From positions 9,198 to 73,197 of the forward strand of contig CAZOJC010000005.1 in NCBI GenBank assembly GCA_964580035.1: DNA of 64,000 nt, read 5' to 3'. Source of the stretch: an uncultured Candidatus Peribacteria bacterium (lineage in GTDB: Bacteria > Patescibacteriota > Gracilibacteria > Peribacterales > Peribacteraceae). This document shows, one piece after another, positions 18,771-43,474 of the stretch (its first letter is position 1; each line of letters opens with the position of its first letter). The notes below the pieces were generated by a model. It was given only the letters and a program-made list of their open reading frames with translations, was not told the DNA's origin and made no database searches. A program made the translations under genes and the position numbers.

Positions 18771-19521
18771 GATGCCGGAGGGGTGTGAGTCGAGGTCCGT
18801 AGAGAGCGGAAAGCGTCTCAGGATCAGTACACTGGCGAGGACCACAGTGTGCTACGAGCTGGTGATTGAGGCACAGCACAGCATCCACCTCCCTTGCTAT
18901 GGCATCTATATCGTGAGAGACGAGGAGGATCGTCATGCTGTGACGCTTGTTTAAGTGTTCGAGCAGGTCATAGAAACTTTCCATTGCGTGGATATCCACC
19001 CCCGTCGTGGGTTCGTCGAGAATGAGCAGCGACGGCTCCGCTGCCAGAGCCCTTGCAATGAAGACGCGTTGTCGCTGACCTCCCGAGAGCGCGTCTATTG
19101 TCTTGTCCTTGAGCATTCTGATGTCTGCGTCCACCATGGCCTGTTGCACCGCACACTCATCACACTCACTGTAGTGGAGCCCAGAACCGGCTTTGGCGAT
19201 CCGTCCGCTGCGTACCACTTCATACACCGTCGCGGGGCACCCTGCATCCGATTGAACAATGCGTTGTGGAACGTACCCAATGCCTCCCTCTTTTCTGGCA
19301 TCCCTCGGATGCTTGCCAAAAATCTCAATAGTCCCTTGCTGCGGCAAGAGCAGTCCCAGCATTAGTTTGACGAGCGTTGTTTTACCCCCGCCGTTTGGCC
19401 CTATGATTCCCGTGTACGAGCCCTGAGCGAGCGAAAAAGAGACGTTATCCAATGCTTTTTCAGCGTCATACTGAAATGTGACCGATGCTACGTCTATGAC
19501 GGGCCTTGTAACTAGCGACAT
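18757..19521 (-). CDS. Metal ABC transporter ATP-binding protein (ZnuC-like)
   Basis: Walker A GPNGGGKTT, signature LSGGQRQRV, Walker B LILDEP. Confidence 0.9.
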   Translation of the reverse strand: MSLVTRPVIDVASVTFQYDAEKALDNVSFSLAQGSYTGIIGPNGGGKTTLVKLMLGLLLPQQGTIEIFGKHPRDARKEGGIGYVPQRIVQSDAGCPATVYEVVRSGRIAKAGSGLHYSECDECAVQQAMVDADIRMLKDKTIDALSGGQRQRVFIARALAAEPSLLILDEPTTGVDIHAMESFYDLLEHLNKRHSMTILLVSHDIDAIAREVDAVLCLNHQLVAHCGPRQCTDPETLSALYGPRLTPLRHHGHA

Positions 19522-20438
19522 TCAAGTGCGGTGCGGAAGGAAGCCAGATTATCGCGCATGATCGAAAAGTATGTTTTTCCGGCGGCCACTTCCTCTTGCG
19601 TGAGCCATTCGACAGGATGCAGTGGGAGGAGAGAGGCGCCGAGATCAGATGCGAGTGCACGCACACGATCCGTGCCAGCTCCCGCTTCGCTAAGAATGTA
19701 GCCGATACGTTGCTCCCGTGCGAGGTCAGAAATCTCCCGTAGCCGACGAGCAGATGGCTCTTCTTCAGTCGAAAATCCGGCAATGGAAACGGTCTTAAAG
19801 CCGTATTCTGCCGCCAGCAAGCGATACGCATCGTGCGAGACGATCACGGTATTCTTTGCGCATTGCGAGAGGCCTGTGCGGTACGCTTCATCGAGCTCGG
19901 CTATCGAGAGGGTGAAGCCAAGTAAGCTCTTTGTATAGTCAGTGGCATGGGGAGGATCGATGGCGATGAGCTGCGCAAATAAAGCCTCTGCTATCTTCTT
20001 AGCATTCTTTGGGCTCAGCCATAGATGAGGGTCATTCACCACATCCTTATCCGCGATGCCGCTATTCACCCCGCCCTGCCCAAAGATCACTTCCGCAGCG
20101 CTCACCGTACGCTTGCCGTCTCTCTCTCGCTCGGTGCGGATATCTGTCGCCCAAGGATCGATGCCGAAGCCATTCATGATGAAGAGATCAGCATCGGCAA
20201 TGGCGGCGATGTGCTTGGCTGTTGGCTCGTAGTCATGAGGCTCGGCCCCTGAGGGAATCGTCTGTGACACTGCCACATGCGCTCCACCCACATGCTGCGC
20301 GAAGGATGCAAGGGGGAAGATCGTGGCTGCGATGCGCACGGAAGGAGCGGCCGTTTTCACGGGTGTTTCGCGAGGCACAGCAGATGCGCATGCGCTGAGC
20401 ATGAACACGAGCAGGAAACTGTAAGCAATGGAGCGCAT
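19512..20438 (-). CDS. Metal ABC transporter substrate-binding lipoprotein (ZnuA/TroA family)
   Basis: Start at MRSIAYSFLLVFMLSACASA (lipobox). GAEPHDYEP, DPHLWLSP and VSHDAY motifs. Confidence 0.85.
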   Translation of the reverse strand: MRSIAYSFLLVFMLSACASAVPRETPVKTAAPSVRIAATIFPLASFAQHVGGAHVAVSQTIPSGAEPHDYEPTAKHIAAIADADLFIMNGFGIDPWATDIRTERERDGKRTVSAAEVIFGQGGVNSGIADKDVVNDPHLWLSPKNAKKIAEALFAQLIAIDPPHATDYTKSLLGFTLSIAELDEAYRTGLSQCAKNTVIVSHDAYRLLAAEYGFKTVSIAGFSTEEEPSARRLREISDLAREQRIGYILSEAGAGTDRVRALASDLGASLLPLHPVEWLTQEEVAAGKTYFSIMRDNLASFRTALECR

Positions 20439-20526
20439 AGCAATAGAAGAGTAGCGCTCGCAGGGCGAAATGCAAATGGGGAGTAAATGTGAGAATACAT
20501 TCCTAGGCACCCGAGCTAATGATGAC

Positions 20527-22935
20527 TTAAAAGTCCTTAGGAGCCTCAACTTTGACACTGCCATTATTGTCCACTGTTACAATTTTTCCAGATTGGAGAA
20601 TAAAGCAATACAGTGCGGAATTTGAATATTCAAAGAGAATTGCCGGGAGAGAAATTTCAGCTTTTCCAATTTCCTGCACTGCTGAATCAATTTTATTTCC
20701 TAAATTATACTTCGCCTGCAGAGCTTTCAAAGAAATATTGCGCCAAGAGATTGTTGTGTAGCTTGATGGAGGCTGTACATTAACAGTTTCTCCGTTCTTG
20801 AATGTCACTTTCAAATTATTGTTCTCAATGTCTATGGAGGAGCATATTGCGTCGATCTGAGACGGCATGCGAGTTATCAATTTATTACCTCGAGCTTCCG
20901 ATGCACTAGAAAGGGGCTTCATTTCGTTGAGATCATGTCCAAAGCAATATGTGTGATCTCCATTATTTTTCTCTATGTCAATTCTAATATCGCCGGTCTC
21001 CAATACACTTACGACTACACACTTGACATCATTCTGTCTCTGAATAATTTTTTGTAAATCTCTGAAGAATAAGCCTAGAAAAAATGTATTTGTATTGTTA
21101 ATTTCTAAGAATTTAAGCACTGCATGATGGATATCATAGAAGACACCATCCCTCTCTTTTGCTTCGTATTTATCAGGCAAAGAATTCATCAACGCGTATC
21201 GCGCTTTTAGTGCATCCTTTGGCAGGATATACGAATTTAGCGTATCTCGTTCAGACGAATCAAGTAGAATTTTTTTGTTGGCATCATCTTTCTTGTGTTC
21301 AAAAACAACGCATTTGAACAGCAAGAAAGTGATACTATCATTAGCATTATCTCGATCTTTTGGATTCATTGTATGATAAAATGCAGTTTGATCTAAGCAT
21401 TCATACGCATCGCGTTGAAGAGTTGAGAATTGATTTTTGAGATTCGAAAGTATGTCTTGTTCCCCTGGTGCTTTGAGATTTTTACCATTCGATTCTATCA
21501 ACTGATCAATGAAATCAAGCACTGCTGGCGGCATATTTGTATCATTCTTGACAGATAACATAGCAGTTCTTGCTTTCATCCAATCTTGATTAGCGATATA
21601 TCCTAAAATAGGAGTGATCTTTTCTTTTTGACTTGAGAATGCTTCCATTTCGTCCTTGAGGACTCCATTATAACTTGTGCCTACCATCGCTTTTCTACTG
21701 AAATAAATGAGGTCTCCAGATTCTGCATTAATTTTATAAGAAATATAGTCACTTTTTACGGTGTATACGCTATGAGGAGGCACATCGTTGTAATTAGTCG
21801 CCTGCCATGTATAGTTGCCATTATTATCTTTTTTCACTTCTATCAGATTTGGAGGCACATTCTTGCTTGTGCGTACCTGGGATATGTACTTTTTAGTAGT
21901 ATTGTCAGAGACAACAAAAATCGGATTTATACCTACAGGTTCCTCTGTATCTTGACTCACTTCGTTTCCGTTACGATCCAAGATCTGAAGCAGCGTACCT
22001 TCTTTGTCAATTAGCACATCGCCTGATTGAATGACACGAATATCCGTATTTAGAATTTTAATCTCTTTCTGGATAGTATTCACTTGTTTCTCGTATTTAT
22101 TTAGATCTGCTTCTAGAGATCGCCTAGCCGCATGGTTTGCAGGCAGTGATTGAAGCAGATTTTTAGCAAGTTGTACGGCTTGACTATAGTTACCTGTGTA
22201 AACGGCATCAGAAATTGGTTTAACATCTTTAGCCATACGAGATACCTCGAGAATATCCTTATTAACATTATCCTTTTCTTCTTGCGAAAGATTCCAAGAA
22301 GTGCCAAGCACAGACTGACTGACGAGTTCTCCTTCTGGAACCAATATTTCTGAATGCACGCGACCAGTCTGAATATCTATCGTATGTATTGGATTCCGAT
22401 TCGGTACCGATTGAGGATATTTGTTCCAAGCAATGTCGTTCTCGTGTTTAACGAATTCCCTCCATGTACCCATCGAATCCTTTCCGAATCGATACATTTG
22501 CTTATCCTTGTCTGTGAAAGGGAGATAGTGGAGATGTGTCTCTAGATCTATCGGCATCTCATTACCTTCATTGTCATACACCTTCTCTCCAATCACATTG
22601 ACTACCTCTCTATACATATAAATTTCGTCGTCTAATCGAGTAATGGAATCACCTTTTATCAGGTAAGCATCCCTGCCTTTTGCCAGATCCCCCCAGACGT
22701 TATAGTATTTTTTTGTATTATTTATTTGTGTTTTTGGAGAGCGATAGAGCACTTTAGCTTCAAATTTCATGAATTGCCTGCCTGAATCAGCTGTAATGAT
22801 CGCCTTTTCCTGAGCAACTGAGAGCGTGCTTTTGATGGAATTAAAATCATTCTGTAACTCGTTTATTTTTCTGAGAAGTTCAGCGTCGATTTTGAATTTT
22901 TCAAAATTCATGGAAAATTTTTTGTCGGTAGACAT
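20527..22935 (-). CDS. Hypothetical 802-aa protein; no signal peptide, TM helix or catalytic motif recognised
   Basis: Long uninterrupted AT-rich ORF. Last gene of a four-gene same-strand set with short gaps. Confidence 0.7.
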   Translation of the reverse strand: MSTDKKFSMNFEKFKIDAELLRKINELQNDFNSIKSTLSVAQEKAIITADSGRQFMKFEAKVLYRSPKTQINNTKKYYNVWGDLAKGRDAYLIKGDSITRLDDEIYMYREVVNVIGEKVYDNEGNEMPIDLETHLHYLPFTDKDKQMYRFGKDSMGTWREFVKHENDIAWNKYPQSVPNRNPIHTIDIQTGRVHSEILVPEGELVSQSVLGTSWNLSQEEKDNVNKDILEVSRMAKDVKPISDAVYTGNYSQAVQLAKNLLQSLPANHAARRSLEADLNKYEKQVNTIQKEIKILNTDIRVIQSGDVLIDKEGTLLQILDRNGNEVSQDTEEPVGINPIFVVSDNTTKKYISQVRTSKNVPPNLIEVKKDNNGNYTWQATNYNDVPPHSVYTVKSDYISYKINAESGDLIYFSRKAMVGTSYNGVLKDEMEAFSSQKEKITPILGYIANQDWMKARTAMLSVKNDTNMPPAVLDFIDQLIESNGKNLKAPGEQDILSNLKNQFSTLQRDAYECLDQTAFYHTMNPKDRDNANDSITFLLFKCVVFEHKKDDANKKILLDSSERDTLNSYILPKDALKARYALMNSLPDKYEAKERDGVFYDIHHAVLKFLEINNTNTFFLGLFFRDLQKIIQRQNDVKCVVVSVLETGDIRIDIEKNNGDHTYCFGHDLNEMKPLSSASEARGNKLITRMPSQIDAICSSIDIENNNLKVTFKNGETVNVQPPSSYTTISWRNISLKALQAKYNLGNKIDSAVQEIGKAEISLPAILFEYSNSALYCFILQSGKIVTVDNNGSVKVEAPKDF

Positions 22936-22962
22936 AGGTACTGCTACAGGACCCCCATCAGC

Positions 22963-24927
22963 CTAGCGAGGTTCTTGGGTGTTATCGGATGCCTCGGTAT
23001 GAGCGGAGGCAGGCGAGGTAGTCAGTGTAGGTGATGATGTTTTTTCAGTCTCGTTCTTGATCAATTCCGATATTCTTACGGCTAATTCTGCTTCATTCAT
23101 TGTATTTGCAATGATAAGTAATGCTTGTAGCTTCTTAACATCGTAAGGCGGATTCATTGATAGTATTTTTTTTTGAATTTTATTTTGAAGCGAAACCAAC
23201 TGTGTTTTCAGTGAAGAAATGAGCACTTGATCCTGAAGTGGATTGCTGATTGCATTATTAGTTAGTATTTTCACTGCAATATATTTATCCCCAAGCCATT
23301 CCACGGTAGTTTCTTCAGTTTCAATTATTGAATTAATTTCAAAGCTTAAGTCTATAAATTGATTATTTAGATCGATCAATGCTTGTAAAGCAATCTTTAC
23401 ATCTTCATTCGCAGTATTTTTCATCTTGTCTGTCAGAATGTTCACCCTGATACGGGCATCAAATTCTCCCGATATGTTTTGCTGTATAGAGCGTAATTCT
23501 TGTTGTATTTCCGGACTCACATCGGTGAGTGGGAGTGGTGAGGAACTGGGCGTAGCTGTAGTGGCAGGAGCGTTATTAGCTTGATAAGGTGGTTTGGTTA
23601 GATTGGATACCTTGGCAGGAGCGAGAGACAAATCAGATTCAGCATCTCCCTGCTTGTTGATATCTTCTCCTGTCTGTGACTTTTCTTTATTGCTCGATTT
23701 TTCTATTGTCGGGCTGCGAGTAGCAGTAGCTCCGGTAGGTGCTTTTGCAGCAGGAGGCGAAGTAGGAGCGGGAGGCGAATCAGGCGTAGAAGATTCTTCC
23801 CGACTTTCAGTTCTCGGAGTGGTCGTTTCTCTCTTGATAAATTCTTTAAGAGATTTTTCGAGATTTGTATCACGAATAGTGCAACCTTGTACTTTAGCTA
23901 AAAGTGATTTTGCCTCGTTTTTTTGCACATCGCTGATAGGGTACTGATCGGATGACTCAAATGCTTCTTCCCCGCTGTTGGGAAAAAGTAAGTCACTACA
24001 TTGTGTATTCAGATCTAGTAATTCTATCAAGTCACTAGCATATCTACCTTCGTATTGCTTCAATTCATCTGTAAGGATCCTGATCCTTTTACTGATATCT
24101 ACTTCATCCTTTAAATTCTTTTCTATTTCTTTTTTCCATTTTTCATTTTCACTCGCTTCATCAGGATTATGAGTATCTATCGGAGGGCTGCTTGTAGAAG
24201 TAGCAGGAACAGCAGCAGGAGCTGGAGCAGCAGCAGTAGGAACTGGAGCTAGAGTAGCTGCAGGAGCTTGAGCTGGAGCAGCAGTAGGAGCTGGAGCAGG
24301 AACAGCAAGTTGAGGTGTATTGAGGAAATTCACTCTCTTCCACTGTCCTCCGTTGATTGAATAGCTATATCCAAGGCCCTTTGTTTGAATGGTAAGGCTA
24401 TTTTGACCGTAGGGTCTGTCCACCTGATAATCATTTCCATTTAAATTCCCAAATTGTGTTGTCTGAGGAGTGATCTGAATCGGATTATGGTAACTATCGA
24501 ACAAAATTGAGACGTTGTCATAAGGTGTAATGTCTAAACGAGAATCGCTAGTGTGGAATTTTGTTTCCACATCACGAGATCCTATCAATGATGAACTTTC
24601 AGCAGTATTCATTTGCTGTTCATAGCCAGCTAAAAGTCCACTCAGCTGAGGAGCAGTGAGGCCGTTCAGTTGGCTATTAAACGTGTTGAGATGGGCGAGC
24701 CATTGATTTCCCAAATTCTCATTATTTCTTTCTTTGCAGAGACGTGCCATCTCCAGCATCCTGACCCTCACATTATCTGCTCTCGCGAGCATTTTTTGCA
24801 TCTCTGCGGCGCTTCCCTCTCCTGGTGTGCTGGTAGGTGCAGTAGGAGCAGACTCAGTAGAAGGAAATTTATACACTCTCCTCTCCTCTGCAAAACTGTG
24901 ACCGTAGAACGAATGTGTGTGTTTCAT
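22963..24927 (-). CDS. Hypothetical 654-aa protein with duplicated helical module and Ala/Pro/Thr-rich linkers
   Basis: Two similar modules: DISKRIRILTDELK...LLDLNTQCSDLLF (24061-24110 region) and FDARIRVNILTDKMK...LIDLNNQFIDLSF (23421-23460 region). A/P linker PAPAPTAAPAQAPAATLAPVPTAAAPAPAAVPA. Confidence 0.7.
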   Translation of the reverse strand: MKHTHSFYGHSFAEERRVYKFPSTESAPTAPTSTPGEGSAAEMQKMLARADNVRVRMLEMARLCKERNNENLGNQWLAHLNTFNSQLNGLTAPQLSGLLAGYEQQMNTAESSSLIGSRDVETKFHTSDSRLDITPYDNVSILFDSYHNPIQITPQTTQFGNLNGNDYQVDRPYGQNSLTIQTKGLGYSYSINGGQWKRVNFLNTPQLAVPAPAPTAAPAQAPAATLAPVPTAAAPAPAAVPATSTSSPPIDTHNPDEASENEKWKKEIEKNLKDEVDISKRIRILTDELKQYEGRYASDLIELLDLNTQCSDLLFPNSGEEAFESSDQYPISDVQKNEAKSLLAKVQGCTIRDTNLEKSLKEFIKRETTTPRTESREESSTPDSPPAPTSPPAAKAPTGATATRSPTIEKSSNKEKSQTGEDINKQGDAESDLSLAPAKVSNLTKPPYQANNAPATTATPSSSPLPLTDVSPEIQQELRSIQQNISGEFDARIRVNILTDKMKNTANEDVKIALQALIDLNNQFIDLSFEINSIIETEETTVEWLGDKYIAVKILTNNAISNPLQDQVLISSLKTQLVSLQNKIQKKILSMNPPYDVKKLQALLIIANTMNEAELAVRISELIKNETEKTSSPTLTTSPASAHTEASDNTQEPR

Positions 24928-24945
24928 AATGGTCTGGCAAAAGAA

Positions 24946-25266
24946 TTAGAGAGCATTAATAGCTGCTTCAGCAGTGGCGAGATCGCCCTCTTGAGTCGCA
25001 TGTTCATCGTCATGACGCATAGCGCGCTCTGCAGTAGCAATCTTGTGCTCGGCCTCCACGATAATTTTCTCCATTTCTTGGAGTGCAATGCGCGAATCTT
25101 CCTCAGCCATCTTATCTTGGTCTTCATTCATCTTCACGAGGTCTTGGTAGAGCGCTTCACGCTTTTCTGGCGTGAGTGCGAGTGAGAGGCTGAGAATGCG
25201 AGGATGCTCAGCAGTGTCGATGTGCGTGAGAGAGGGGAGCTTTTGCATGAATGTGTCGTGCGTCAT
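24946..25266 (-). CDS. Small (106-aa) acidic helical hypothetical protein
   Basis: Start at MTHDTFMQKL makes an ATGA overlap with the upstream stop at 25263. Motif SLALTPEKREALYQDLVKMNEDQ is shared with ORF 36745-36987. Confidence 0.55.
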   Translation of the reverse strand: MTHDTFMQKLPSLTHIDTAEHPRILSLSLALTPEKREALYQDLVKMNEDQDKMAEEDSRIALQEMEKIIVEAEHKIATAERAMRHDDEHATQEGDLATAEAAINAL

Positions 25267-26072
25267 TGGGAAGGGGAGGAAGTGGATTTGTTGGGCTGCC
25301 AAGTGTAATCACCAAGCGCTTTTGCTAGAGCTTTCTTCCATTCTCCTTTATCGTTAGGATTGATGTAGATAACAGGCACGCTGCCGCGCGGAATCATGGG
25401 CCCAGCAATTCTGAGGCGGTAACCGGCGGAAGGATCTTGACGAATGTCGAACGTGATACCCGCTTTCTTGGCCTTCACGAGGAGATTTAGGAGTTCAGAA
25501 TCGCTGGCGTTCAGTTTGAGGTACTCCGGTACCGTATATTCTGTGTCTCCGTCTACAGAGCGGGAAAAATATCTCTCGAGAGGCCGAGAATCGGATGCTT
25601 TGGGATACGTAAGCATGCTCGCTACTAATCGTGGAAAACTTATAATGCCGCCTGCTCCAGGAATCATGCTCATCATTTGCTCAGTTTCTTCTGTACGCTG
25701 CTGATTCAATGTAACTTCACGCTCAGTAAGCTGATTTTCATAGAACCGAAGATGCTTATCGAGCGTTTGTAACTTTTGGTCTGCACCGACATTCTGCTTG
25801 AAGCTCCAGTGTGAATAGTGATCGGTCACTTTCGCGCGCCACTCCTGCCAAGCCTTCCTTTGCGCTGGCAAGTGAGTGATCATAGAGTCAATTCTCTCTA
25901 ACACCTTCGCTAATCGCACATCCAATGCACGCTTCTTTGTATCAAAATCTCTTCTTTGTTCATTCTGTTCACTGCCCCCAGTAATGGCATTCTTTACTCT
26001 CTCAAGAAACTGAAAGTGAAGCAGGCGAGATTCGCTAGAACGCTGAGAGTGAAAGAGTGTTGTGCGTGTCAT
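25263..26072 (-). CDS. Hypothetical 269-aa protein (first gene of the four-gene operon)
   Basis: Intact ORF. An extended -10 lies 20 nt upstream. No family recognised. Confidence 0.65.
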   Translation of the reverse strand: MTRTTLFHSQRSSESRLLHFQFLERVKNAITGGSEQNEQRRDFDTKKRALDVRLAKVLERIDSMITHLPAQRKAWQEWRAKVTDHYSHWSFKQNVGADQKLQTLDKHLRFYENQLTEREVTLNQQRTEETEQMMSMIPGAGGIISFPRLVASMLTYPKASDSRPLERYFSRSVDGDTEYTVPEYLKLNASDSELLNLLVKAKKAGITFDIRQDPSAGYRLRIAGPMIPRGSVPVIYINPNDKGEWKKALAKALGDYTWQPNKSTSSPSQ

Positions 26073-26092
26073 ATGTGAGGAGGAATCCTATC

Positions 26093-26101
26093 ATTATAAC
26101 A
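26093..26101 (-). promoter_or_regulatory. Extended -10 element TGTTATAAT upstream of the four-gene operon
   Basis: The minus strand reads TGTTATAAT, ending 20 nt before the ATG at 26072. The -35 region is weak (TGTCAA). Confidence 0.4.
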
Positions 26102-26154
26102 TACGGTTCACTCTTTTGACAGTGATTCACTCGCTGTATCTGAGAAGGCGGCTA

Positions 26155-26766
26155 TTATTTGGAGCAAGTCCGGTTTGATATATGAAATTTCTTGAGCAGC
26201 ATGAGGGCATCAAACACTTTAGAACTTATTTTTACATGTGGTGTAAAACAGCCGTGTATGCCTTGCTCTGTATTACGCATTGTTATGGTAAGGTCTGCAT
26301 TTAAATGAGATCGGAATTGATCATAATTCAGAGCAGAAGAACCTTTGTTGACTTCCACATATCTCACTATGAGTGCATCTTTCAGAAGTAATAGAATACA
26401 ATGAGGCATTTTGAGCGACGTATAGGCCTCATTTTGCTTGCAGACAGCATTTTCCCCCGCATGCGCGAAAGCAGTCTCTAATAATTTCTTTACTTCATTA
26501 ATCATAGGATAACTCTCAAATGTGCAGATATAGTTGCCAGCATTCGACCGTTCATACTCTCCTGTAATAATATGTGAAACAGTATTGGCCAATTTACACA
26601 CTTCGATAATTTGGATTTCTGAAAAATGAAGATATGAACCACTTACAAAACATTGAATGAGGAATTCTGCAGTTATTTTCAGCAAGTCTAGTTCGCCAGG
26701 ACATTGTATTTTTGGGGTATTGGTGGAGGTAGAAAGAAAACCATTTTTTTTATCCTTCCTCCGCAA
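26155..26766 (-). CDS. Hypothetical protein, possibly the 3' portion of a gene interrupted by the IS element
   Basis: 203-aa AT-rich ORF whose only upstream start is a TTG lying inside the GC-rich IS left end. Confidence 0.4.
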   Translation of the reverse strand: MRRKDKKNGFLSTSTNTPKIQCPGELDLLKITAEFLIQCFVSGSYLHFSEIQIIEVCKLANTVSHIITGEYERSNAGNYICTFESYPMINEVKKLLETAFAHAGENAVCKQNEAYTSLKMPHCILLLLKDALIVRYVEVNKGSSALNYDQFRSHLNADLTITMRNTEQGIHGCFTPHVKISSKVFDALMLLKKFHISNRTCSK

Positions 26767-27295
26767 AACCCCCGGCGTCAGCCGGGTGGATGAAGGGGAT
26801 CCGGCATCGTTGGTCTAGAATTGCAGCATGCAGCATCAGTACAAAAGGCAGTCCAATTGTGTGTATCATTGCATCTACCACCTTGTTCTCTGCACAAAAT
26901 ACCGACGCAAGATTTTCAACGACGGAATTTTTGCGTACATGCGCGAAATCCTTAGAGAGATCCCCGCCCACTATCCCGAAGTGGAGATCCTCGAGATCAA
27001 TCATGACAAAGACCATGTTCATCTCATGCTCTGGATTCCACCCAAAATGTCCGTTGGTAAGGTGGTGAACATTCTCAAAGTGAACACCGCTCGTCACCTC
27101 AAGCAAAAATTTCCCTTCTTGAAAGAAGTCTACTGGGGAACAGATGGCATCTGGTCAGACAGTTATTTTGTATCCACCGTTGGTATCAACGAAGAGATTA
27201 TTCGAAAATACATTGAGCATCAGGGCAGGGAAGATGCCGGACAGCAACGGCTGAAACTCGTGTAAGCCACCACCGTAAGGTGGTGGTAGTTCACT
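26755..27295 (+). mobile_element. IS200/IS605-family insertion sequence (tnpA only); boundaries approximate
   Basis: A GC-rich ~540-bp segment inside AT-rich DNA. Subterminal hairpins CCCGGC-GTCA-GCCGGG (26771-26786) and CCACCACC-GTAA-GGTGGTGG (27267-27286) flank a Y1 transposase gene. Confidence 0.7.
26828..27265 (+). CDS. tnpA: IS200/IS605 family Y1 (HUH) transposase TnpA
   Basis: YHLVLCTKYRRKIF, HUH motif DHVHLML and catalytic-Tyr region WSDSYFVSTVG. 145 aa. Confidence 0.9.
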   Translation: MQHQYKRQSNCVYHCIYHLVLCTKYRRKIFNDGIFAYMREILREIPAHYPEVEILEINHDKDHVHLMLWIPPKMSVGKVVNILKVNTARHLKQKFPFLKEVYWGTDGIWSDSYFVSTVGINEEIIRKYIEHQGREDAGQQRLKLV

Positions 27296-27562
27296 GGCTT
27301 CAAAATAATCTACCAATGCCGATATTTCTTGCCATGATTTATCATCGGAGTTTGTAGTGAGTAGGATTGCAAATGCATTTTTCAAAATTATTTGGGATTG
27401 ATTTCTATGAACAGTAGTACAATATTTTAGTAAAAATGCATTTACTATACACTGTACGTATTCTCCTTTGAATATTAGATCAAATTCCGAATTTCGCATA
27501 TTGAGTATATAGCGAGCTCGATCCTGTAAGCCATTATCAGAATTTCCGTTCTGAGTATTCAT
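27155..27562 (-). CDS. Hypothetical ORF, probably the 5' portion of the IS-interrupted gene; the last ~45 codons read into the IS right end
   Basis: AT-rich up to ~27292. The ORF then continues through the IS hairpin (encoding ELPPPYGGG) and antisense to the tnpA 3' end. Confidence 0.35.
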   Translation of the reverse strand: MNTQNGNSDNGLQDRARYILNMRNSEFDLIFKGEYVQCIVNAFLLKYCTTVHRNQSQIILKNAFAILLTTNSDDKSWQEISALVDYFEASELPPPYGGGLHEFQPLLSGIFPALMLNVFSNNLFVDTNGGYKITV

Positions 27563-27717
27563 TATAATATAATTAAAAACCTTATTACAAATTTGTCAAT
27601 AATACTGCCACAATATGTGTGTTATTGGCTTATTCATGAGGAATAATGACTGTTCCATGAAAATGTATTCGCAGAGATGAGCATACAACAATAGTACTGA
27701 TGAGTGTGCACACGTAC

Positions 27718-29935: not shown

Positions 29936-32900
29936 TCAGAGGCCACGCTTCTCACAACGAGAATTGACAATTTCTGCGTACACCGAAGCGCCGACAATGA
30001 GAATGGCGCTGAGAAGCAGCAGCGGAGTTGGTTTCACAGAGTGAACGGCAAACACCTCGAGAGAGAATGTGATGAGAATGGAAAGATTGAACATCATGTA
30101 TGCCAAGTAGCCGTCAATACGCTTGAAAGCGGCGTAATTGAGCAATTGTCCGATGCCCACAAAGAGCCCGATCCCCATACCGAAGAGGAGAGTTCGCAAC
30201 GTTAGCCCGTGCAGTATTGCAGGATTCCATAAAGTGAGCGCGATCATTCCAGGAGCCGTACAAATGAGTAGGCAAAGGAAAATGTGAATATTAAGAAGGA
30301 ATCCATTAACCGATCGATAGCGCTTGCAGTACTCGATTTGGCTAATGGTCACTAGCACATCAAAAAAAGTGGAAATCATCGCAAGGATGTCTCCGGTGAC
30401 AGACGAAGATGCAGAGAGATATTTTGTATTGAATACAAGCAAGGAACTGCCGATGCCCGCCATCACTGCGAGGAGAAAAATGATGAGGATAGTGCGCGGT
30501 TGCCGCAAATACGGAATCTCTCGTCGCCAGAACACGGCAGCAATGAGTAGCCCTATCACAGGCGCGAAATTATTGAATAGGAGAAGATTGGTACCGCTGG
30601 TGTAGATCAGACTGGCATTTTTAAAGTACATAACACCAATTTGTCCGATAACGAAGAGGGTAAAAAATCGATCATAGACTAGAGAGAACGAAACATTCTT
30701 TTTTTTCATTCGCTGCCGCACGTACGTTGCGCCGTAGACGATGAGAGAAGGAATGAGTACGCCAAGGCCGAGGAGAAAGGTTCTGAGGAACGGTGAGAGA
30801 TCGTTGGCAGGTGTGTACTTGATGTAAATGGGTTCGAGTCCCCAGACAAAAATAGCGGCGAGTCGTATGGCATACCCCACTCTCTTGCGTCGTCGAATGG
30901 ATTTCCAATCGGCTGCGGAAATGTGTGTGCTGCGAGATTTCTCGATAACAGAGAAGAGCGCTTCTGCCTGAAAAAAGCGGTAGCCGATGAAGAGGAGGGA
31001 GAGCACGAAGAGCGCAAGTAAGGGCAGAATGCTCACGTCAGATTGAGTGCTCAAAAGCCGCAGAACAATGAGGAGAAGAGCGATGATATTGAACAGGAAG
31101 CCAACGCCGACAAACCATCGATCGGTGCGCATGCGCACGATGTATTTCTGCATCAGCCGCAGGAGTAGGGTATTGGCAATGAGCACCGGCACGAGAGGGA
31201 GTGAATGCATGATTGCGCGAGGGATGCCCGGTGTGGGGAGCCAATACTGATACTGTGGGAGGAATATCACATCAGCGAGGAGGAACGCGAACGACACGCA
31301 AAAAGCGCCTACGAGCAGAGCGTTATCCCGATACGGAACGAGCGATTGCACTGAAGAAACGGCATCCTGCCGTTCCAGCGCATCGATGAAATCCGCATAG
31401 TGAAGGCGATCTGATGCGCTGCCAATGAGAATGATGGAGAAGACGCCAGTTTTGCTATCGAAACGCACGCGAGTACTTCGGATATCGATTCCTTTGGTGC
31501 GGCTGAACTCAACGAGCGAAGAGAGAACATCGTGCTGCCGTTCCTGCACTCCCGTAACACACAGGCGAAAGGTGTACCGAGAAGGACGATGCCGAGAAAA
31601 ACACCTCCCCTGAGAAGTGTCGCTGAAGACTGCGAATACCAATTCACGAGGCCGAAGACTTCCTTCACCAATCATGGCGAGCACTTCACTGAAGTGTGCG
31701 CGACGAAACAGTGCTGCAGCTTTCTGCCGATCCGATTTCCGAATCTCATGAAGAGGGCCGCGATTGTAGCGATCCATTTCCGTCTGCAGGAGGCTCGCAC
31801 CGAGGGCTATTTTGTCTTCACGACTTCGCTTTTTAAGCACATCGACCACATGACTCCTCGCATTGCTCGTGATGACGTACTTGAGCCACTCGGCATCGAC
31901 GTGTTCTTGTCGGCTGTCTATTTCCATGTACACCATATCATCCTCTTCGAGGGCATGAGAGAGCGAGACGGTTCTTCCGGCCACGCGTGCGGCGACCGAT
32001 GCATTTGCTCGCGCTCCGAACGCGACGTACGCAGCATCCAGGACAGTGCCACCTCTCGGCAGAGACACGCGAATGTCATTTACGATGACGACAATGCTTT
32101 CCTGTAAAATATCTGATTCCAATCCCTGCCAGAATGCTTGGCTGCTCTCGCGGGTAGTAAGATCGAGATCTTCCGATCTCTTCAGCCACGGAAATTGCGA
32201 GAGAGGATCTATCGACTCTTTTCCAAAGAGACTCGTGACAATGCCCTTCTCAGCTTGTTCGTGCATGGACATCGTACGGATACGTATCTCGACGGCTTCC
32301 CCTGTTTTCAGCGTGACGGTTGTGTGAAGGCTGCGGTATCCGGCTGTACCGGGAGTGGCGATGTAATCGCGAAATTGCGCATGGACGGGACGAAACAGCG
32401 TGTGGAGCGATTTCAGGAGTTGGTAGCAGTCATGTTCAGTGCGAACGATAGCAATGATTGAGTACGCATCACATCCGACCATGTCCTGCGTTCTTGTTGC
32501 TCTCTTGAGAGAGGCGCACACATCGTTCGGCTGCAAGAAGAGATCGACTATAGATGTCTGCAATCCATGCGTATCAAGCGACGAACGTATCTCTCCGACG
32601 AGAGAGGCTCCACTCTCTATCCGCTCGCTCTGTCTTTTGATGAATGCCGCTCCCTCTGCGTACACAAGAGGCACGCACACATCACTGTATTCGCAGTACA
32701 CTGCTCGCATGCCAAGGTGCACAGCCAACTTGTAGTACAGATCCATTGTTTCTTTTGCAAAGCGCTTCTTTCGATCACCCTGCAGAAAGTGAATGGTGCG
32801 AATATTGTGGAGTCTGTCGGCAAGCTTGATGATGATCACGCGGATGTCTCTCCGCATAACCTCAAACAGCCGCCTCACCGTTTCAATTTTAGTGTCGAGT

Positions 32901-33250
32901 GATGAATGCTGGCTGAAGTCCGTACTCGAAAACTTAGTGACACCCTCCACGAGCAGCGCCACGTGTCTGCCGAACACCTCCTTGATGTGGGATTTCGTTA
33001 CGGTCGTATCTTCCAGTGTGTCATGCAGAAGGCTGCCGATGATCGTGTCGGCATCTCCATGCCACGAAGCGACTATGAGAGCCGTCTCAATGACGTGATT
33101 GACGTACGGCGTGCTATCCTCTCGCTTTTGCTCCTCGTGCGCGCTCAGTGCCAGATCGTACGCCTGCTGCACGCGTACCTGGTCTTCCTGAGGGAGGTGT
33201 TCAAGGGCTTCTCGTAGGCGAGAGAAGGGAAGAATGTCAGATGCAGCCAT
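29936..33250 (-). CDS. Rel/SpoT-homologue (HD hydrolase, synthetase-like, TGS, ACT) fused to a C-terminal polytopic EamA/DMT-type membrane domain; 1104 aa
   Basis: LLHDTLEDT and IKLADRLHNIRT (HD); DYIATPGTAGYRSLHTTV and EIRIRT (synthetase); TGS LPRGGTVLDAAY; ACT-like aa ~560-635; hydrophobic helices from aa ~644 onward, including an EamA-like stretch AIFVWGLEPIYIKY...FAPVIGLLIAAVFWRREIP. Confidence 0.9.
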   Translation of the reverse strand: MAASDILPFSRLREALEHLPQEDQVRVQQAYDLALSAHEEQKREDSTPYVNHVIETALIVASWHGDADTIIGSLLHDTLEDTTVTKSHIKEVFGRHVALLVEGVTKFSSTDFSQHSSLDTKIETVRRLFEVMRRDIRVIIIKLADRLHNIRTIHFLQGDRKKRFAKETMDLYYKLAVHLGMRAVYCEYSDVCVPLVYAEGAAFIKRQSERIESGASLVGEIRSSLDTHGLQTSIVDLFLQPNDVCASLKRATRTQDMVGCDAYSIIAIVRTEHDCYQLLKSLHTLFRPVHAQFRDYIATPGTAGYRSLHTTVTLKTGEAVEIRIRTMSMHEQAEKGIVTSLFGKESIDPLSQFPWLKRSEDLDLTTRESSQAFWQGLESDILQESIVVIVNDIRVSLPRGGTVLDAAYVAFGARANASVAARVAGRTVSLSHALEEDDMVYMEIDSRQEHVDAEWLKYVITSNARSHVVDVLKKRSREDKIALGASLLQTEMDRYNRGPLHEIRKSDRQKAAALFRRAHFSEVLAMIGEGSLRPRELVFAVFSDTSQGRCFSRHRPSRYTFRLCVTGVQERQHDVLSSLVEFSRTKGIDIRSTRVRFDSKTGVFSIILIGSASDRLHYADFIDALERQDAVSSVQSLVPYRDNALLVGAFCVSFAFLLADVIFLPQYQYWLPTPGIPRAIMHSLPLVPVLIANTLLLRLMQKYIVRMRTDRWFVGVGFLFNIIALLLIVLRLLSTQSDVSILPLLALFVLSLLFIGYRFFQAEALFSVIEKSRSTHISAADWKSIRRRKRVGYAIRLAAIFVWGLEPIYIKYTPANDLSPFLRTFLLGLGVLIPSLIVYGATYVRQRMKKKNVSFSLVYDRFFTLFVIGQIGVMYFKNASLIYTSGTNLLLFNNFAPVIGLLIAAVFWRREIPYLRQPRTILIIFLLAVMAGIGSSLLVFNTKYLSASSSVTGDILAMISTFFDVLVTISQIEYCKRYRSVNGFLLNIHIFLCLLICTAPGMIALTLWNPAILHGLTLRTLLFGMGIGLFVGIGQLLNYAAFKRIDGYLAYMMFNLSILITFSLEVFAVHSVKPTPLLLLSAILIVGASVYAEIVNSRCEKRGL

Positions 33251-33421: not shown

Positions 33422-33492
33422 TAGAGTCTTGAGTGAGAAGGAACGCGATGACGATGGCAGAAACTCCCAATTCATGCTATAATTGCAATAAT

Positions 33493-34542
33493 ATGAAACA
33501 TTCTTCATCGATCTGGCAAACAGCCATCGACATGAACGCATCTGACATCCATGTGGTGACAGGGCAAGCGCCTCGGCTACGCATCAATGGTGTACTGGAT
33601 CCGATTCACAATGCAGATCCTCTCTCATTTGCAGAAGTGAAAAAACTCATGGGAGATTTTCTCTCTGAAGAAAAGTATGCATTATTCCAGAAAGAAGGGG
33701 ACACCGATTGCTCATACATGCATAACGACGGCACGCGGTTCCGCATCAACTGCCACTTAGTTACTGGGCAGCCCGCATTCGCAGCAAGACTTGTACCTCA
33801 AATTATTCCCACGCCAGAAGAAATCTTACTTCCGGGAGTGGTGATGAATCTCTGCCGAAGCCTCGATGGCCTCGTGCTCTTCACGGGCCCCACTGGAGCG
33901 GGAAAATCCACGTCTCTCGCCGCCATCCTCAATACCATCAATCACGAGCGTTCCATCAATATCCTCACGCTCGAAGATCCCATCGAGTTTATTTTCGAAT
34001 CCAAAAAAGCACTCGTGAGTCAGAGAGAATTGGGTATGGACTTTCAGACGTTCCCCCAAGGACTCAAGCATGTGCTCCGCCAGGACCCCAATATCGTGAT
34101 GGTGGGAGAAATGCGAGATCTCGAGAGCATAGGATTGGCACTCACCCTTGCCGAAACTGGGCACCTCGTGCTTGCAACACTCCACACGCCCAACGCCATG
34201 CAGACTCTGGATCGTATCATCGATGCCTTTCCTCCCCACCAGCAGACGCAAGTTCGACTTCAGCTCGCGCTCTCGCTGAGGGCCATCGTCGCCCAGCGGC
34301 TTGTACCCAAAAAAGGAGGCGGGCGCATTGCCAATCGCGAGATCCTCATCCGCACGCCGGCTGTTTCAAATATCATCCGAGAAGATCGCTTCATAGAGCT
34401 CGCTACAGTCATGCAGACGAGTCAGAATATCGGCATGCTCACATTCGAGAAAGATATCGAGCGCTTAATCGAGCTCGATCTGGTGAATGCTACAGAGGTG
34501 GAATTTCTCATGAATAGAGCAAAACCGTACGATCTCGGATGA
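33493..34542 (+). CDS. pilT: Type IV pilus retraction ATPase PilT
   Basis: ASDIHVVTGQAPRLRINGVL, Walker A GPTGAGKST, MVGEMRD and TGHLVLATLHT. Alternative upstream starts at 33433 and 33448. Confidence 0.9.
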   Translation: MKHSSSIWQTAIDMNASDIHVVTGQAPRLRINGVLDPIHNADPLSFAEVKKLMGDFLSEEKYALFQKEGDTDCSYMHNDGTRFRINCHLVTGQPAFAARLVPQIIPTPEEILLPGVVMNLCRSLDGLVLFTGPTGAGKSTSLAAILNTINHERSINILTLEDPIEFIFESKKALVSQRELGMDFQTFPQGLKHVLRQDPNIVMVGEMRDLESIGLALTLAETGHLVLATLHTPNAMQTLDRIIDAFPPHQQTQVRLQLALSLRAIVAQRLVPKKGGGRIANREILIRTPAVSNIIREDRFIELATVMQTSQNIGMLTFEKDIERLIELDLVNATEVEFLMNRAKPYDLG

Positions 34543-34593: not shown

Positions 34594-35598
34594 CTATGCA
34601 GGCTTTTTCAGTATTTGCTGTTCGTACACATCCAGCATCTCTGCGAGCGTAATACCCTTGGTTTTATCGGTCCACTCTGCCTTCACGTGTACTTTCCCCG
34701 ACGATCCTCTCATGAACGTGACGAACGCAGATGCGACAGAGGCGGCCTTTTCCACCACAGGTTTCTGCGCTGTGATCGGAGTGGTGAGCGAGTGAGCAGG
34801 TGTTGGTGTTGCTGCGGGTACAGCAGAAGCGGCCGCTGAGGCACCTGTCAATGCCGCAGGAGCACTAGGAGAGGAAAAATCTTTCAGCCGACTCAATTCA
34901 TACGTTGTAACACGTTCATTGAAGTAGATGCGAGATCCAGCAGCTGTGTTTGCATCTACTAACACAGCCTGAACACTCGCTGCTATCTCCTGCACCGTTT
35001 TTTGCTCTTCGATGATGGAGGCTAATCGTGTCCCAATGAACGGTAAGTCTTTCACCCAATCGCCAAAGAGAGACGTGATCCCACTCATGAAAACATGTTT
35101 AACCGAAATGCCCTTCATGCCATTAAAGAGCCCCAGAACCGTTTCCTTCACAGCGTTATAGCCACTAGTGATCATTTTTTTTGCATCCTTTGAAGGAGTA
35201 AGGCTCTCTATCGTAGCTTTAAAAAAGCCATCAACACTGTTTGCGATTCTCTTAAAGAATGACGGACGGATTTCGATGCCAAGCTCTTTGAGAGCCTTGA
35301 GCCTACCCTCCAGTGCTTCGAGGTGTGTATCGATTTCAGATGAGGAATTTTCATTGAGTGTAGTGTGAAGTTCATTGAGCATAATCTGCGCTTTCAAGAC
35401 TACATTTTGTTTCAGAATATTCTTCCTTTCAATATCTGCTGGGACTGCATTTGGTAGTTTGCTTATTTGATCAGCAAGCGTATTGAGCTGGTCGAGAGTG
35501 GTTGCAGCGTTAATCCGTTCTACACTGACCTCTGCCGATGTTTTTGGGTTCTCTTGATAAGGTGGAGTCATAGTACGATCAAGAAGTAACTTACTCAA
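34594..35598 (-). CDS. Hypothetical 334-aa protein (helical N-terminal part, A/P/S/T-rich linker, small C-terminal domain)
   Basis: Intact ORF overlapping the upstream gene by 8 nt. Linker SSPSAPAALTGASAAASAVPAATPTPAH. No family recognised. Confidence 0.6.
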   Translation of the reverse strand: MSKLLLDRTMTPPYQENPKTSAEVSVERINAATTLDQLNTLADQISKLPNAVPADIERKNILKQNVVLKAQIMLNELHTTLNENSSSEIDTHLEALEGRLKALKELGIEIRPSFFKRIANSVDGFFKATIESLTPSKDAKKMITSGYNAVKETVLGLFNGMKGISVKHVFMSGITSLFGDWVKDLPFIGTRLASIIEEQKTVQEIAASVQAVLVDANTAAGSRIYFNERVTTYELSRLKDFSSPSAPAALTGASAAASAVPAATPTPAHSLTTPITAQKPVVEKAASVASAFVTFMRGSSGKVHVKAEWTDKTKGITLAEMLDVYEQQILKKPA

Positions 35599-41310: not shown

Positions 41311-41375
41311 TGCAATGCTTGAATTATTGACAGAAGTTTTTTTTGAAGTAATTTGCGGTTCTCTTACAGAGAACT

Positions 41376-42170: not shown

Positions 42171-42254
42171 TCATGAACTAGTCATGACTTTCAATTGTCC
42201 CTTCTCAATCGTCTCTGCTATGCTGAGGTGCGTTTCTCTTCCCCACACATTTCT

Positions 42255-42593: not shown

Positions 42594-42639
42594 TTCGATT
42601 CTTTAAAACCGTTTCTCTGTAAGGGGAAGCGGTTTTTTT
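42504..42639 (+). repeat. Direct repeat copy 1 (3' end of the ytxH-like gene plus its terminator)
   Basis: 42504-42604 is identical base for base (101 nt, compared by hand) to 43321-43421. The following ~35 nt terminator is similar but diverged. Confidence 0.9.
42605..42639 (+). terminator. Intrinsic terminator of the ytxH-like gene (usable in both directions)
   Basis: AAAACCGTTTC...GAAGCGGTTTTTTT hairpin plus T-run. The reverse complement is also followed by TTTT, so it can serve the convergent NYN gene. Confidence 0.7.
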
Positions 42640-43459: not shown

Positions 43460-43474
43460 GGTGTAATCTTCTTA

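Follow-up and report, generated by a model that had tools for sequence, protein, structure and literature searches.

The window, a 64-kb stretch of the chromosome of a Candidatus Peribacteria bacterium (CPR/Patescibacteria), carries an island of foreign-looking AT-rich DNA that lies between the real start of znuA, at ~20438, and the stop of an RlmI-like methyltransferase gene, at 27718 (Table 1). Relatives of this methyltransferase gene, 61–72% identical, were found only in Candidatus Peribacteria MAGs. The order within the island is p135, IS200, p203, p269, p106, p654, p802, a co-oriented gene string in which the insertion sequence lies on the opposite strand. The original prediction of four minus-strand genes of 269, 106, 654 and 802 aa was borne out in its particulars: the ATGA overlap that joins the p269 and p106 genes in translational coupling, the gaps of 18 nt between p106 and p654 and 27 nt between p654 and p802, and the extended −10 promoter-like site all sit where they had been placed. 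Promoter-like sites were no commoner in our scan than in shuffles, so the site upstream of p269 is a consensus match only, and the unit is likely to extend further upstream, since in a second strain the p269 gene is preceded by a p203 homolog. The scan showed no terminator-like site between the p802 gene and znuA, so read-through into znuACB is possible. Stops make up ~6–7% of random codons in DNA of 38% GC such as that around the p802 gene; its 802-codon open frame is thus not a chance product, and the very long ORFs in AT-rich DNA, together with their tight spacing, indicate that the operon genes are real.

Table 1. Features of the island and the contigs that cover its junctions, in window coordinates.
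Feature	Position	Strand	Description
Low-GC island, whole	20527–27700	−	7.2 kb; fills the gap from znuA to the RlmI-like methyltransferase gene
p802	20527–22935	−	ORF; 802 aa, 91 kDa, pI 5.9
p654	22963–24927	−	ORF; 654 aa, 72 kDa, pI 5.1
Imperfect 24-nt tandem repeat	24202–24307	−	Encodes the p654 Pro/Ala linker
p106	24946–25266	−	106 aa, acidic, pI 4.7, helical
p269	25263–26072	−	ORF; 269 aa, basic, pI 9.6
Promoter-like site	26093–26122	−	CTGTCA, 18 nt, TG-n-TATAAT (extended −10); upstream of p269
p203	26155–26766	−	203 aa, AT-rich, basic, Cys-rich ORFan
IS200-type insertion sequence	26765–27297 (ends approximate)	+	tnpA at 26828–27265
p135	27155–27562	−	135 aa, GC3 0.24, very AT-rich, own promoter-like site
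L001	19000–26777		Logan contig, SRR16481183; 100% identical
L020	29811–27265		Logan contig, SRR16481183; 100% identical

The GC content is 35–46% over 20.5–28.0 kb and 52–57% in the flanks, a difference in the direction first described and supported by GC3, but smaller than the earlier figures of 25% versus 60%. At synonymous sites, GC3 is 0.24–0.35 in four island genes (0.33–0.35 in p654 and p802) against 0.55–0.67 in ten host genes. The values for p269 (0.48) and p106 (0.54) are host-like; given these two genes inside it, the island is compositionally composite. The region is an accessory island of foreign composition, which was therefore probably acquired horizontally; the low GC3, the sharp composition borders at gene ends and the IS200 within the island all speak for a foreign origin. 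Both island junctions were assembled independently in SRR16481183, on two Logan contigs that both break within the IS200 ends. At least one other AT-rich island (49–56 kb) lies in the same window. Hypothetical proteins are abundant in CPR genomes, which, together with this second island, makes the finding less exceptional than the sequence alone implied.

The IS200 and orphan ORFs predicted upstream of the operon were confirmed by profile matches and ORFs of 203 and 135 aa. The transposase matches Pfam Y1_Tnp (E 4.5e-36) and NCBIfam IS200 (E 7.7e-40), and subterminal hairpins lie at about 26771–26786 (CCCGGC-GTCA-GCCGGG) and, at the other end, at about 27271–27290 (CCACCACC-GTAA-GGTGGTGG). The last ~45 codons of p135 are read from the right end of the IS200, so p135 is either truncated or abutted by it. 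A 248-aa ORF on contig L017 is homologous to p203 (BLASTP E 2e-6; z = 8.5, a score reached in 0/500 shuffles), and it is this ORF that precedes the p269 variant in the second strain. Compared with the 99.5% identical strain of L015, p203 differs by eight SNPs, six non-synonymous and two synonymous.

p802 is predicted to be a soluble multi-domain α/β protein. Among 5.8e9 clustered proteins it matches itself only, and HMMER run in full against 1.84e9 representatives returned P0007 alone (E 4.5e-15; BLASTP 8e-25, 29% identity). This 529-aa protein, also AT-rich, has the N-terminal domain in common with p802 (aa 8–279, the sole part with a distant relative), over which the two are 29–30% identical and certain Trp, Gly and Pro residues are invariant. 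Its gene belongs to another locus (L018) in a different genome, where it has inserted elsewhere in the chromosome and lies two genes away from one for a T4SS pilin of the TrbC/VirB2 type (PF18895 E 4.6e-11, PF04956 E 1.6e-7). No p269 or p654 homologs were detectable in that locus, and homologs of its pilin and membrane protein are absent from the window. p654 comprises an N-terminal region, a helical module of ~90 aa that occurs twice (aa ~255–345 and ~468–560; z = 9.1 against shuffles) and a Ser/Thr/Glu-rich C-terminal tail, with Pro/Ala/Thr/Ser-rich linkers setting the copies apart (linkers at aa 200–260, 366–414, 440–474 and 626–654). Tandem Repeats Finder gives the linker repeat 4.5 copies with 75% matches (direct-repeat families D1 and D2). 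The protein forms a singleton cluster, with no family, PDB, phage or viral matches.

The mechanical ORF list gave p106 as 118 aa, by extension from a TTG; 39 of its first 40 codons are identical in a 78% variant locus. Residues 4–93 weakly match residues 273–357 of Thermotoga maritima trigger factor (2nsa_A; phmmer E 0.0097, a borderline value from a small database), and Pfam Trigger_C was not detected at E ≤ 1. In both loci a small acidic protein is encoded directly upstream of a large AT-rich gene, p106 here and a 98-aa protein (pI 4.9) in L018, with no significant similarity between the two (z = 2.2; 47% identity, confined to 19 residues). p269 is modeled as three long helices (aa 10–135) and a small α-β-β-β-α domain (aa 189–257), with no significant Foldseek hit; this C-terminal domain draws weak dsRBD-like fold hits (prob ≤ 0.38), and its best fold matches, also non-significant, are small uncharacterized phage proteins. 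The AlphaFold2 models of p802 (pLDDT 38.5; no Foldseek hit) and p269 (pLDDT 61) are too poor for any fold claim.

No family match was found for the four operon proteins in Pfam, NCBIfam, PADLOC, PHROGs or PDB sequences, nor did 5.8 billion clustered proteins or the HMMER scan of 1.84 billion representatives yield one, and AlphaFold with Foldseek assigned the proteins to no family. Relatives are absent from IMG/VR, INPHARED phages and PLSDB plasmids; PHROGs gave no hits with E below 0.004, and PADLOC none at E ≤ 1 for any of the six island proteins. Within the four operon proteins we found no signal peptide or TM helix (no 19-residue window at a Kyte-Doolittle mean of 1.6) and no Walker A, HExxH, CxxC or similar motif; NTPase, nuclease, protease, TIR and SIR2 signatures were likewise not found. 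The initial impression of proteins with no recognizable family, export signal or catalytic motif has thus held across every sequence and profile search, Foldseek, the hydropathy windows and the motif scan. Long helices and heptad-like segments are abundant, in p654 alongside proline-rich linkers, and the island products are predicted to be soluble and, by every test applied, non-enzymatic.

All four genes occur together in one strain-level lineage only, comprising the source MAG and the 100% identical contig L001. Contigs from two further runs (L014, 100%; L015, 99.5%) hold the 203/269/106 part and the start of the 654-aa gene only, and the znuA-side locus has been recovered from three sequencing runs of the same strain. 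The 78% variant of the 269-aa gene (P0006/P0008) keeps its upstream and downstream neighbors, in the order 203-like, 269, 106, on contigs that end before the large genes. Its divergence is mosaic: blocks with pS of 0.02–0.05 adjoin blocks with pS of 0.54–0.60 and pN of 0.21–0.38, and changes of both kinds are very few in the near-identical blocks, which argues for a real gene. The island proteins, fast-evolving and mosaic, are confined to essentially one lineage. Co-occurrence is mixed, the four genes holding together in one strain lineage but the locus of the p802 relative lacking 269 and 654 homologs; the neighborhood is similarly conserved in the 78% variant but not around the p802 relative, which sits in an unrelated locus. 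Co-occurrence in a single strain-level lineage does not establish the coherent four-gene system originally proposed, and the locus, judged from its sequence, looks more like an accessory island, modular and restricted to one lineage, than like a conserved machine of four components.

In gene architecture only, and partly on general knowledge, the locus may be likened to chaperone–effector pairs of host-associated bacteria (Agrobacterium VirE1–VirE2, Legionella IcmS/IcmW-dependent Dot/Icm effectors, T3SS class I): a gene for a ~100-aa acidic helical protein lies just upstream of those for large signal-peptide-less proteins, the cargo is lineage-restricted, lower in GC, rich in coiled coil and disorder and located beside an IS, and T4SS are widespread in the phylum. 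The island proteins, however, resemble no known chaperone or effector in sequence or, with confidence, in fold, the window holds no T4SS genes, and a secretion signal is not definable. The LXG/T7SSb loci of monoderm bacteria, with small helical Lap/WXG100-like partners, a large toxin and an immunity gene, share with the island small helical partners upstream of large Sec-signal-less proteins, mosaic hypervariability and an island location; however, the island proteins have no LXG, WXG100, DUF3130 or DUF3958 hits and no toxin domain, and the next gene downstream is znuA, with no candidate immunity gene. T7SS are not known from CPR bacteria. Low-GC ORFan islands with IS elements are similar in their sharp composition break, low GC3, IS200, site between housekeeping genes and strain-level spread, but the Peribacteria island has no integrase, tRNA or att repeats, and p269 and p106 are host-like in composition. 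p106 resembles the C-terminal chaperone domain of trigger factor in being acidic and all-helical, but lacks ribosome-binding and PPIase domains.

It is rather unlikely that the island is cargo or a remnant of a mobile element (a CPR prophage, integrative element or plasmid) stranded in the chromosome and encoding virion, tail-fiber-like or element-maintenance proteins from a CPR mobilome that has been little sampled. AT-richness relative to the chromosome that extends to synonymous sites, the IS200, the related AT-rich gene at another site in another genome and the phage proteins among the non-significant folds of p269 would agree with such an origin, as would the proline-rich linkers and coiled-coil segments, features common in phage fiber and scaffold proteins. 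Yet the island, only 7.2 kb in size, contains no integrase, terminase, portal, capsid or replication gene, neither a tRNA gene nor flanking direct repeats were found at it, and the PHROG, IMG/VR, INPHARED and PLSDB searches supplied no relative. Intracellular structural or regulatory proteins with no cell–cell role (cytoskeleton-like coiled-coil scaffolds, nucleoid- or RNA-associated proteins) are an unlikely account: core structural proteins are normally clade-conserved and host-like in composition, whereas those of the island are strain-restricted, AT-rich at synonymous sites and mosaic, and no Pfam dsrm or other nucleic-acid-binding domain was found, although predicted solubility without export signals, long helices with heptad-like segments, a basic p269 with dsRBD-like hits and possible co-transcription with znuACB would all suit it.

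A novel anti-phage defense or toxin–antitoxin-like system, in which p269/p106 would act as a sensor or an antitoxin-like regulator and the large proteins would be effectors, would explain an IS-bearing island with a multi-gene operon of large proteins, a narrow and patchy distribution, hypervariable segments and a translationally coupled pair of opposite charge. It is made decidedly doubtful by the empty PADLOC search and the lack of Walker A and of NTPase, nuclease, protease, TIR or SIR2 signatures; nearly all known defense systems carry at least one domain of these types. Moreover, near-complete absence from 15 billion proteins would be unusual for a typically horizontally spread defense system. 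Singleton proteins, a p135 disrupted by or abutting the IS200 and a neutral-looking SNP pattern in p203 could be taken to indicate DNA that was recently acquired and is functionless in its present host, or an assembly chimera, but four tightly spaced, intact ORFs in AT-rich DNA, the longest of 802 codons, an N-terminal domain of p802 kept across ~70% sequence divergence, independent assembly of both junctions and the repeated recovery of the znuA-side locus make this highly improbable.

The reading that we tentatively advance is that p654 and p802 may be fast-evolving, effector-like cargo served by a small acidic adaptor and exported by a non-Sec route. The absence of Sec signals, TM segments and catalytic motifs is consistent with it, as are the acidic small gene upstream of a large AT-rich gene in both loci, the likeness of p106 to the trigger factor C domain, the proximity of p802's only relative to a VirB2-type pilin gene, and the block divergence of p269 and six-to-two SNP ratio of p203, taken as fast or diversifying evolution. 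Against it, no T4SS gene lies within the window, and to our knowledge no secretion signal has been defined for the Patescibacteria T4SS. CPR genomes contain many VirB2-like pilin genes (PMC12102498), and the adjacency was seen once, in another genome, so it may be due to chance. The trigger factor match is borderline and unseen by Pfam, and it is hard to see how possible co-transcription with znuACB would bear on an effector role. In Patescibacteria, T4SS are widespread, mostly without relaxase and with unknown substrates, and essential in a Saccharimonadia model (PMC12102498, PMC11665869).

If p654 and p802 are such cargo, the basic p269 and acidic p106, translationally coupled and of host-like GC, would work together as resident proteins in an adaptor or chaperone-like role, and the two AT-rich proteins would be exchangeable and act outside the cytoplasm on another cell. 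[quoted passage not shown] The target cell would be a competitor or the host bacterium of a presumed epibiont, a status assumed from other CPR lineages.

Between znuA and an RlmI-like methyltransferase gene, whose stop lies at 27718, the chromosome carries what we classify as an island of ORFan genes, low in GC and specific to one strain. Read on the minus strand, its elements run p135, an IS200 copy (itself on the plus strand), p203, p269, p106, p654 and p802, the proteins being named by their length in amino acids. The four minus-strand ORFs of the original prediction, with an ATGA overlap and gaps of 18-27 nt, are borne out by the ORF list and by the sequence: the stop of p269 and the start of p106 overlap as ATGA, 18 nt separate p106 from p654, and 27 nt separate p654 from p802. 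The island stretch at 20.5-28.0 kb has a GC content of 35-46% and the flanks 52-57%. GC3 is 0.35 in p802, 0.33 in p654, 0.34 in p203 and 0.24 in p135, set against 0.55-0.67 in ten host genes; p269 (0.48) and p106 (0.54) come close to the host values. The AT-rich direction predicted for the large genes thus holds for both GC and GC3, although the hand counts behind it, 25% versus 60% GC, overstate the contrast. A CTGTCA-18-TG-n-TATAAT sequence at 26122-26093 is promoter-like as a consensus match only, in a scan whose total of promoter-like sites did not exceed that of shuffled sequences.

Coordinates of the four coupled ORFs and of genes in other low-GC stretches of the window
Feature	Position	Strand	Source or location
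p802 ORF, 802 aa	20527-22935	minus	ORF list
p654 ORF, 654 aa	22963-24927	minus	ORF list
p106 ORF, 106 aa	24946-25266	minus	118 aa from TTG in the mechanical list
p269 ORF, 269 aa	25263-26072	minus	ORF list
NYN-domain protein gene	42679-43326	minus	41000-44600 low-GC stretch
HD-domain protein gene	43475-44566	plus	41000-44600 low-GC stretch
490-aa histidine kinase	49067-50539	minus	second AT-rich island
NNMT/PNMT-like methyltransferase	50582-51715	minus	second AT-rich island
622-aa aldehyde-dehydrogenase-like protein	51836-53704	plus	second AT-rich island
719-aa ORFan	53893-56052	plus	second AT-rich island

Ordinary chromosomal genes flank the island: znuA, znuC, znuB and pstS downstream and, upstream, the RlmI-like PUA-SAM methyltransferase gene followed by a 2-hydroxyacid-dehydrogenase-like gene (assigned by sequence alone) and a RelA/SpoT homologue. 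Genes for NAD-dependent DNA ligase, UvrC, CTP synthase, DHODH, a PilT-like ATPase and sugar-nucleotide enzymes lie at a greater distance. The ORF listed for znuA, 19512-20564, overlaps the end of p802; a lipoprotein-type start at 20438 is more probable than the listed 20564, giving a typical lipoprotein signal, MRSIAYSFLLVFMLSAC, and an 88-nt spacer to p802. No terminator-like site was found in this spacer, and read-through into znuACB is therefore possible. The TGA that ends the methyltransferase gene falls exactly where its homologues end, which supports the standard bacterial code (code 11) and rules out an alternative one. Moreover, Logan contigs of run SRR16481183 cover window positions 19000-26777 and 29811-27265, both at 100% identity, and both island junctions are therefore confirmed independently.

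The island lacks the integration signature of a phage or prophage: there are no direct repeats flanking it and no integrase among the ORFs, and the window contains neither a tRNA gene nor an Rfam element. Relatives of the RlmI-like methyltransferase, 61-72% identical, were found in twelve MAGs, 11 of them labelled Candidatus Peribacteria or Peribacterales and one without a taxon label, which places the organism within the CPR/Patescibacteria. None of the twelve loci around these genes has a neighbour in common with the window, so no empty insertion site can be defined from them, and exact look-ups of ZnuA and the methyltransferase for an island-less strain matched the same sample only.

The element upstream of the four genes is unambiguously an IS200 transposase by its profile matches, a Y1 (HUH) enzyme that aligns across the full PF01797 profile (E 4.5e-36) and with NF033573 (E 7.7e-40). 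Perfect hairpins of 6 bp and 8 bp lie close to its two ends. The window contains no second copy, and both Logan contigs stop just inside an IS end, as expected of a repeat, which suggests that the element is repeated in the SRR16481183 sample. We considered whether p135 and p203 are the halves of a single gene split by this insertion and rejected it, as the native p135 part is not similar (z = -0.7) to the intact homologue on L017, a contig of a second strain.

The original prediction that these proteins belong to no recognisable family stands, none of Pfam, NCBIfam, PADLOC, PHROGs, PDB and Foldseek having supplied one. The best Pfam-A and NCBIfam matches of the four proteins reach E 0.025-0.8 and 9-15 bits, where the cut-offs are at least 24 bits; no family of PADLOC-DB 2.0 matches any of the six island proteins at E <= 1, and PHROGs returned only matches of unknown function, at E >= 0.0048. 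Neither p802 nor p654 was matched by tblastn in 50,697 phage records (GenBank phages, INPHARED set). Relatives of p802, P0007 (a distant relative of p802, described below), p654 and p269 were absent from IMG/VR, those of p802 and p269 from PLSDB plasmids, and those of p802 from GTDB species representatives. Searches of PDB sequences with p802, p654, p269, p203, p106 and a p802/P0007 profile gave nothing below E 0.0097, and Foldseek with the p802 and p269 models gave no match of E < 0.07 in PDB or BFVD. The predicted lack of signal peptides, TM helices and catalytic motifs was likewise confirmed by hydropathy and motif scan: the maximum Kyte-Doolittle mean over 19-residue windows is 1.0-1.3, with no TM helix or signal-peptide core, and the proteins lack Walker A, HExxH, CxxC, GxSxG and similar motifs. 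No LXG/WXG100-type or C-terminal toxin domain was matched in Pfam or NCBIfam, and W-x-G occurs only once in the island proteins, at p654 aa 544, outside any small hairpin protein. We rejected the idea that the island proteins are paralogous to one another or to the window's remaining AT-rich ORFs, except for an internal repeat in p654.

This repeat, with a z of 9.1 relative to shuffled sequences, comprises two helical modules of ~90 aa, at aa ~255-345 and ~468-560, which follow an N-terminal region. Linkers rich in Pro, Ala, Thr and Ser separate the parts (aa 200-260, 366-414 and 440-474), the first of them encoded by an imperfect 24-nt tandem repeat, and the protein (pI 5.1) ends in a Ser/Thr/Glu-rich tail. 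p269 is basic, with a pI of 9.6. Its AlphaFold2 model, of moderate confidence (pLDDT 61), predicts three long helices within aa 10-135 and a small alpha-beta-beta-beta-alpha domain at aa 189-257 (pLDDT 70-81). Several weak Foldseek matches of this C-terminal domain are dsRNA-binding domains of the same topology (E >= 0.66, probability <= 0.38); Pfam dsrm was not found, and the assignment has no sequence support. The adjacent p106 (12 kDa, pI 4.7) is acidic, looks helical from its composition and has a single heptad-like segment. A PDB phmmer match to the trigger-factor C-terminal chaperone domain is borderline (E 0.0097), and Pfam Trigger_C gives no match at E <= 1.

Two ENA assemblies contain a second p269 allele (protein identity 78%, DNA identity 86%), whose divergence is mosaic. 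Residues 1-104, 181-232 and 257-269 hardly differ (pS 0.00-0.05), whereas synonymous sites are saturated in residues 105-180 and 233-256 (pS 0.54-0.60), where indels also occur and pN is 0.38 and 0.21, respectively. This block pattern indicates recombination between divergent alleles or hypervariable cassettes. A diversity-generating retroelement (DGR) was rejected as the origin of the blocks: no template repeat, as a copy of the variable segments, was found in 19.5-29.0 kb, nor any reverse transcriptase among the window ORFs run through Pfam, and the divergence includes indels and synonymous-saturated blocks. The p269 allele of this second strain is preceded by an AT-rich homologue of p203 (E 2e-6, z = 8.5) and followed by p106, in which 39 of the first 40 codons are identical, so that the order p203-like, p269, p106 is kept. 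Its contigs stop short of the position of the large genes. A closer strain, 99.5% identical over 1.9 kb, differs at nine SNPs, eight of them in p203 at 26155-26766 (six non-synonymous) and one in p106, with none in the adjacent p269.

The largest protein, p802 (pI 5.9), appears to be a multi-domain alpha/beta protein; its AlphaFold2 model (pLDDT 38.5) is unusable. A word-indexed search of 5.8e9 clusters returned p802 itself only, and a full HMMER search over 1.84e9 representatives returned one other protein, the 529-aa P0007 (E 4.5e-15). Residues 8-279 of p802 align with residues 276-527 of P0007 at 29% identity (BLASTP 8e-25), and some Trp, Gly and Pro positions are invariant between the two. 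P0007 is encoded in a different genome of ~55% GC (L018 1-5744, Logan SRR28892715), between truB and the gene for a 185-aa multi-TM membrane protein; a TrbC/VirB2-type T4SS pilin gene lies two genes downstream, and a PRPP synthase gene also follows. A gene for an acidic 98-aa protein (pI 4.9) precedes that of P0007; this protein resembles p106 in its first 19 residues only, a similarity that is not significant. The N-terminal half of P0007 has no detectable relation to p269 or p654, and the idea that P0007 fuses p269 to the p802 N-terminal domain was dropped, the similarity being not significant. The P0007 gene is also AT-rich at synonymous sites (GC3 0.36). That two large genes whose shared domain is only 29% identical both have a GC3 of ~0.35 in genomes of ~55% GC argues for repeated acquisition from an AT-rich pool or for selection that keeps GC low, and speaks against one old insertion.

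Distribution is where the original prediction fares less well. It held the four genes to be the strongest candidate for an undescribed system: the description and the absence of a family stand, but this conclusion is only partly supported, the four genes having been seen together in one strain lineage only. Parts of the locus were recovered at 99.5-100% identity in three sequencing runs, which represent the same strain, and p802, p654, p269, p203 and p135 are each singleton clusters among ~15 billion proteins. Together, the word-index search of the 5.8e9 clusters with p802 and p269 and the full HMMER search with p802 returned the queries, one 78% variant and one distant relative. Relatives carry sub-modules rather than the whole set, and what the contigs of the second strain show is the gene order at the p269 end.

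Nor is the island alone in the window, which tempers the claim that it is the strongest candidate there: other AT-rich islands exist, in particular at 49-56 kb. That second, larger island (49000-56100, GC 35-41%) encodes proteins of which none is related to those studied here. Further lower-GC stretches (40-46%) lie at 41000-44600 and 1000-2000. Minus-strand ORFans of 334 and 385 aa overlap each other at 34594-36748 (GC ~42%); they have helical-looking N-termini and no Pfam family, and adjoin a PilT/T2SSE-type ATPase gene (33433-34542, plus strand). The RelA/SpoT homologue (29936-33250, 1104 aa) carries HD_4, RelA_SpoT and TGS domains, with ~ten strongly hydrophobic segments in its C-terminal 460 residues; it appears from these features to be an alarmone enzyme fused to a polytopic membrane domain.

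The island genes do code for proteins, and they lie in an accessory island of a Peribacteria chromosome that bears an IS and is foreign in composition. Their products are soluble, helix-rich and, for p654, rich in linkers, with no known enzymatic signatures; they are quick-evolving, modular and found almost exclusively in one lineage. That the DNA is functionless, or a chimera of the assembly, is highly improbable: the long ORFs are intact, one domain is conserved, and independent assemblies recover the locus. CPR genomes contain large fractions of hypothetical proteins, and an island of this kind would therefore little surprise a specialist. Cargo of a mobile element or phage would fit the AT-rich composition and the IS200 copy, but we regard it as unlikely given that hallmark genes are missing and the searched viral collections hold no relatives. 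A lineage-specific intracellular scaffold or regulator is a less likely reading again. A novel defence or TA-like system, which the island context would suit, is more doubtful still: PADLOC gives no match, NTPase and nuclease domains are lacking, and the genes have hardly spread.

We tentatively rank first an effector-like role in cell-cell interaction, a possible reading that we nevertheless hold with low confidence. Its ranking derives from the p269/p106 pair, the arrangement of an acidic and then a large gene, and the literature on Patescibacteria T4SS. The basic p269 and acidic p106, translationally coupled, probably form a complex. Both loci place a gene for a small acidic protein ahead of a large AT-rich gene whose product lacks a signal, which recalls a chaperone-effector pair: acidic p106, 18 nt upstream of p654, and the 98-aa protein upstream of P0007 resemble the small acidic partner encoded beside the cargo in T4SS/T3SS effector-chaperone pairs. 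T4SS are widespread in Patescibacteria, usually relaxase-less, and essential in the one model examined, with substrates unreported and no translocation signal defined (PMC12102498, PMC11665869). Against an effector-like role, the pilin adjacency of P0007 is a single case, the structure models are too weak for fold claims, and the 64-kb window contains no T4SS genes. The most specific form of the effector reading, that the island encodes the first identifiable substrates and a dedicated adaptor of a relaxase-less Patescibacteria T4SS in epibiotic Peribacteria, has only a modest chance of holding. Under it, the Peribacteria epibiont would deliver p654 and p802 into its host bacterium, p106 with p269 would act as the chaperone/adaptor pair, and the N-terminal domain that p802 shares with P0007 would serve a fast-turnover effector family as its common recognition module.

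The significance of the island is limited by its presence in essentially one strain lineage, by its lack of a functional anchor and by the commonness of hypothetical proteins and foreign islands in the phylum; at present it is a catalogue entry of four or five new protein families, with no mechanism discovered. For host exploitation by CPR/Patescibacteria, a lineage-specific, fast-evolving set of large proteins that lack signals and have a small acidic partner is a kind of locus in which T4SS substrates might hide, and the p802/P0007 domain offers a handle with which to search further Peribacteria genomes.
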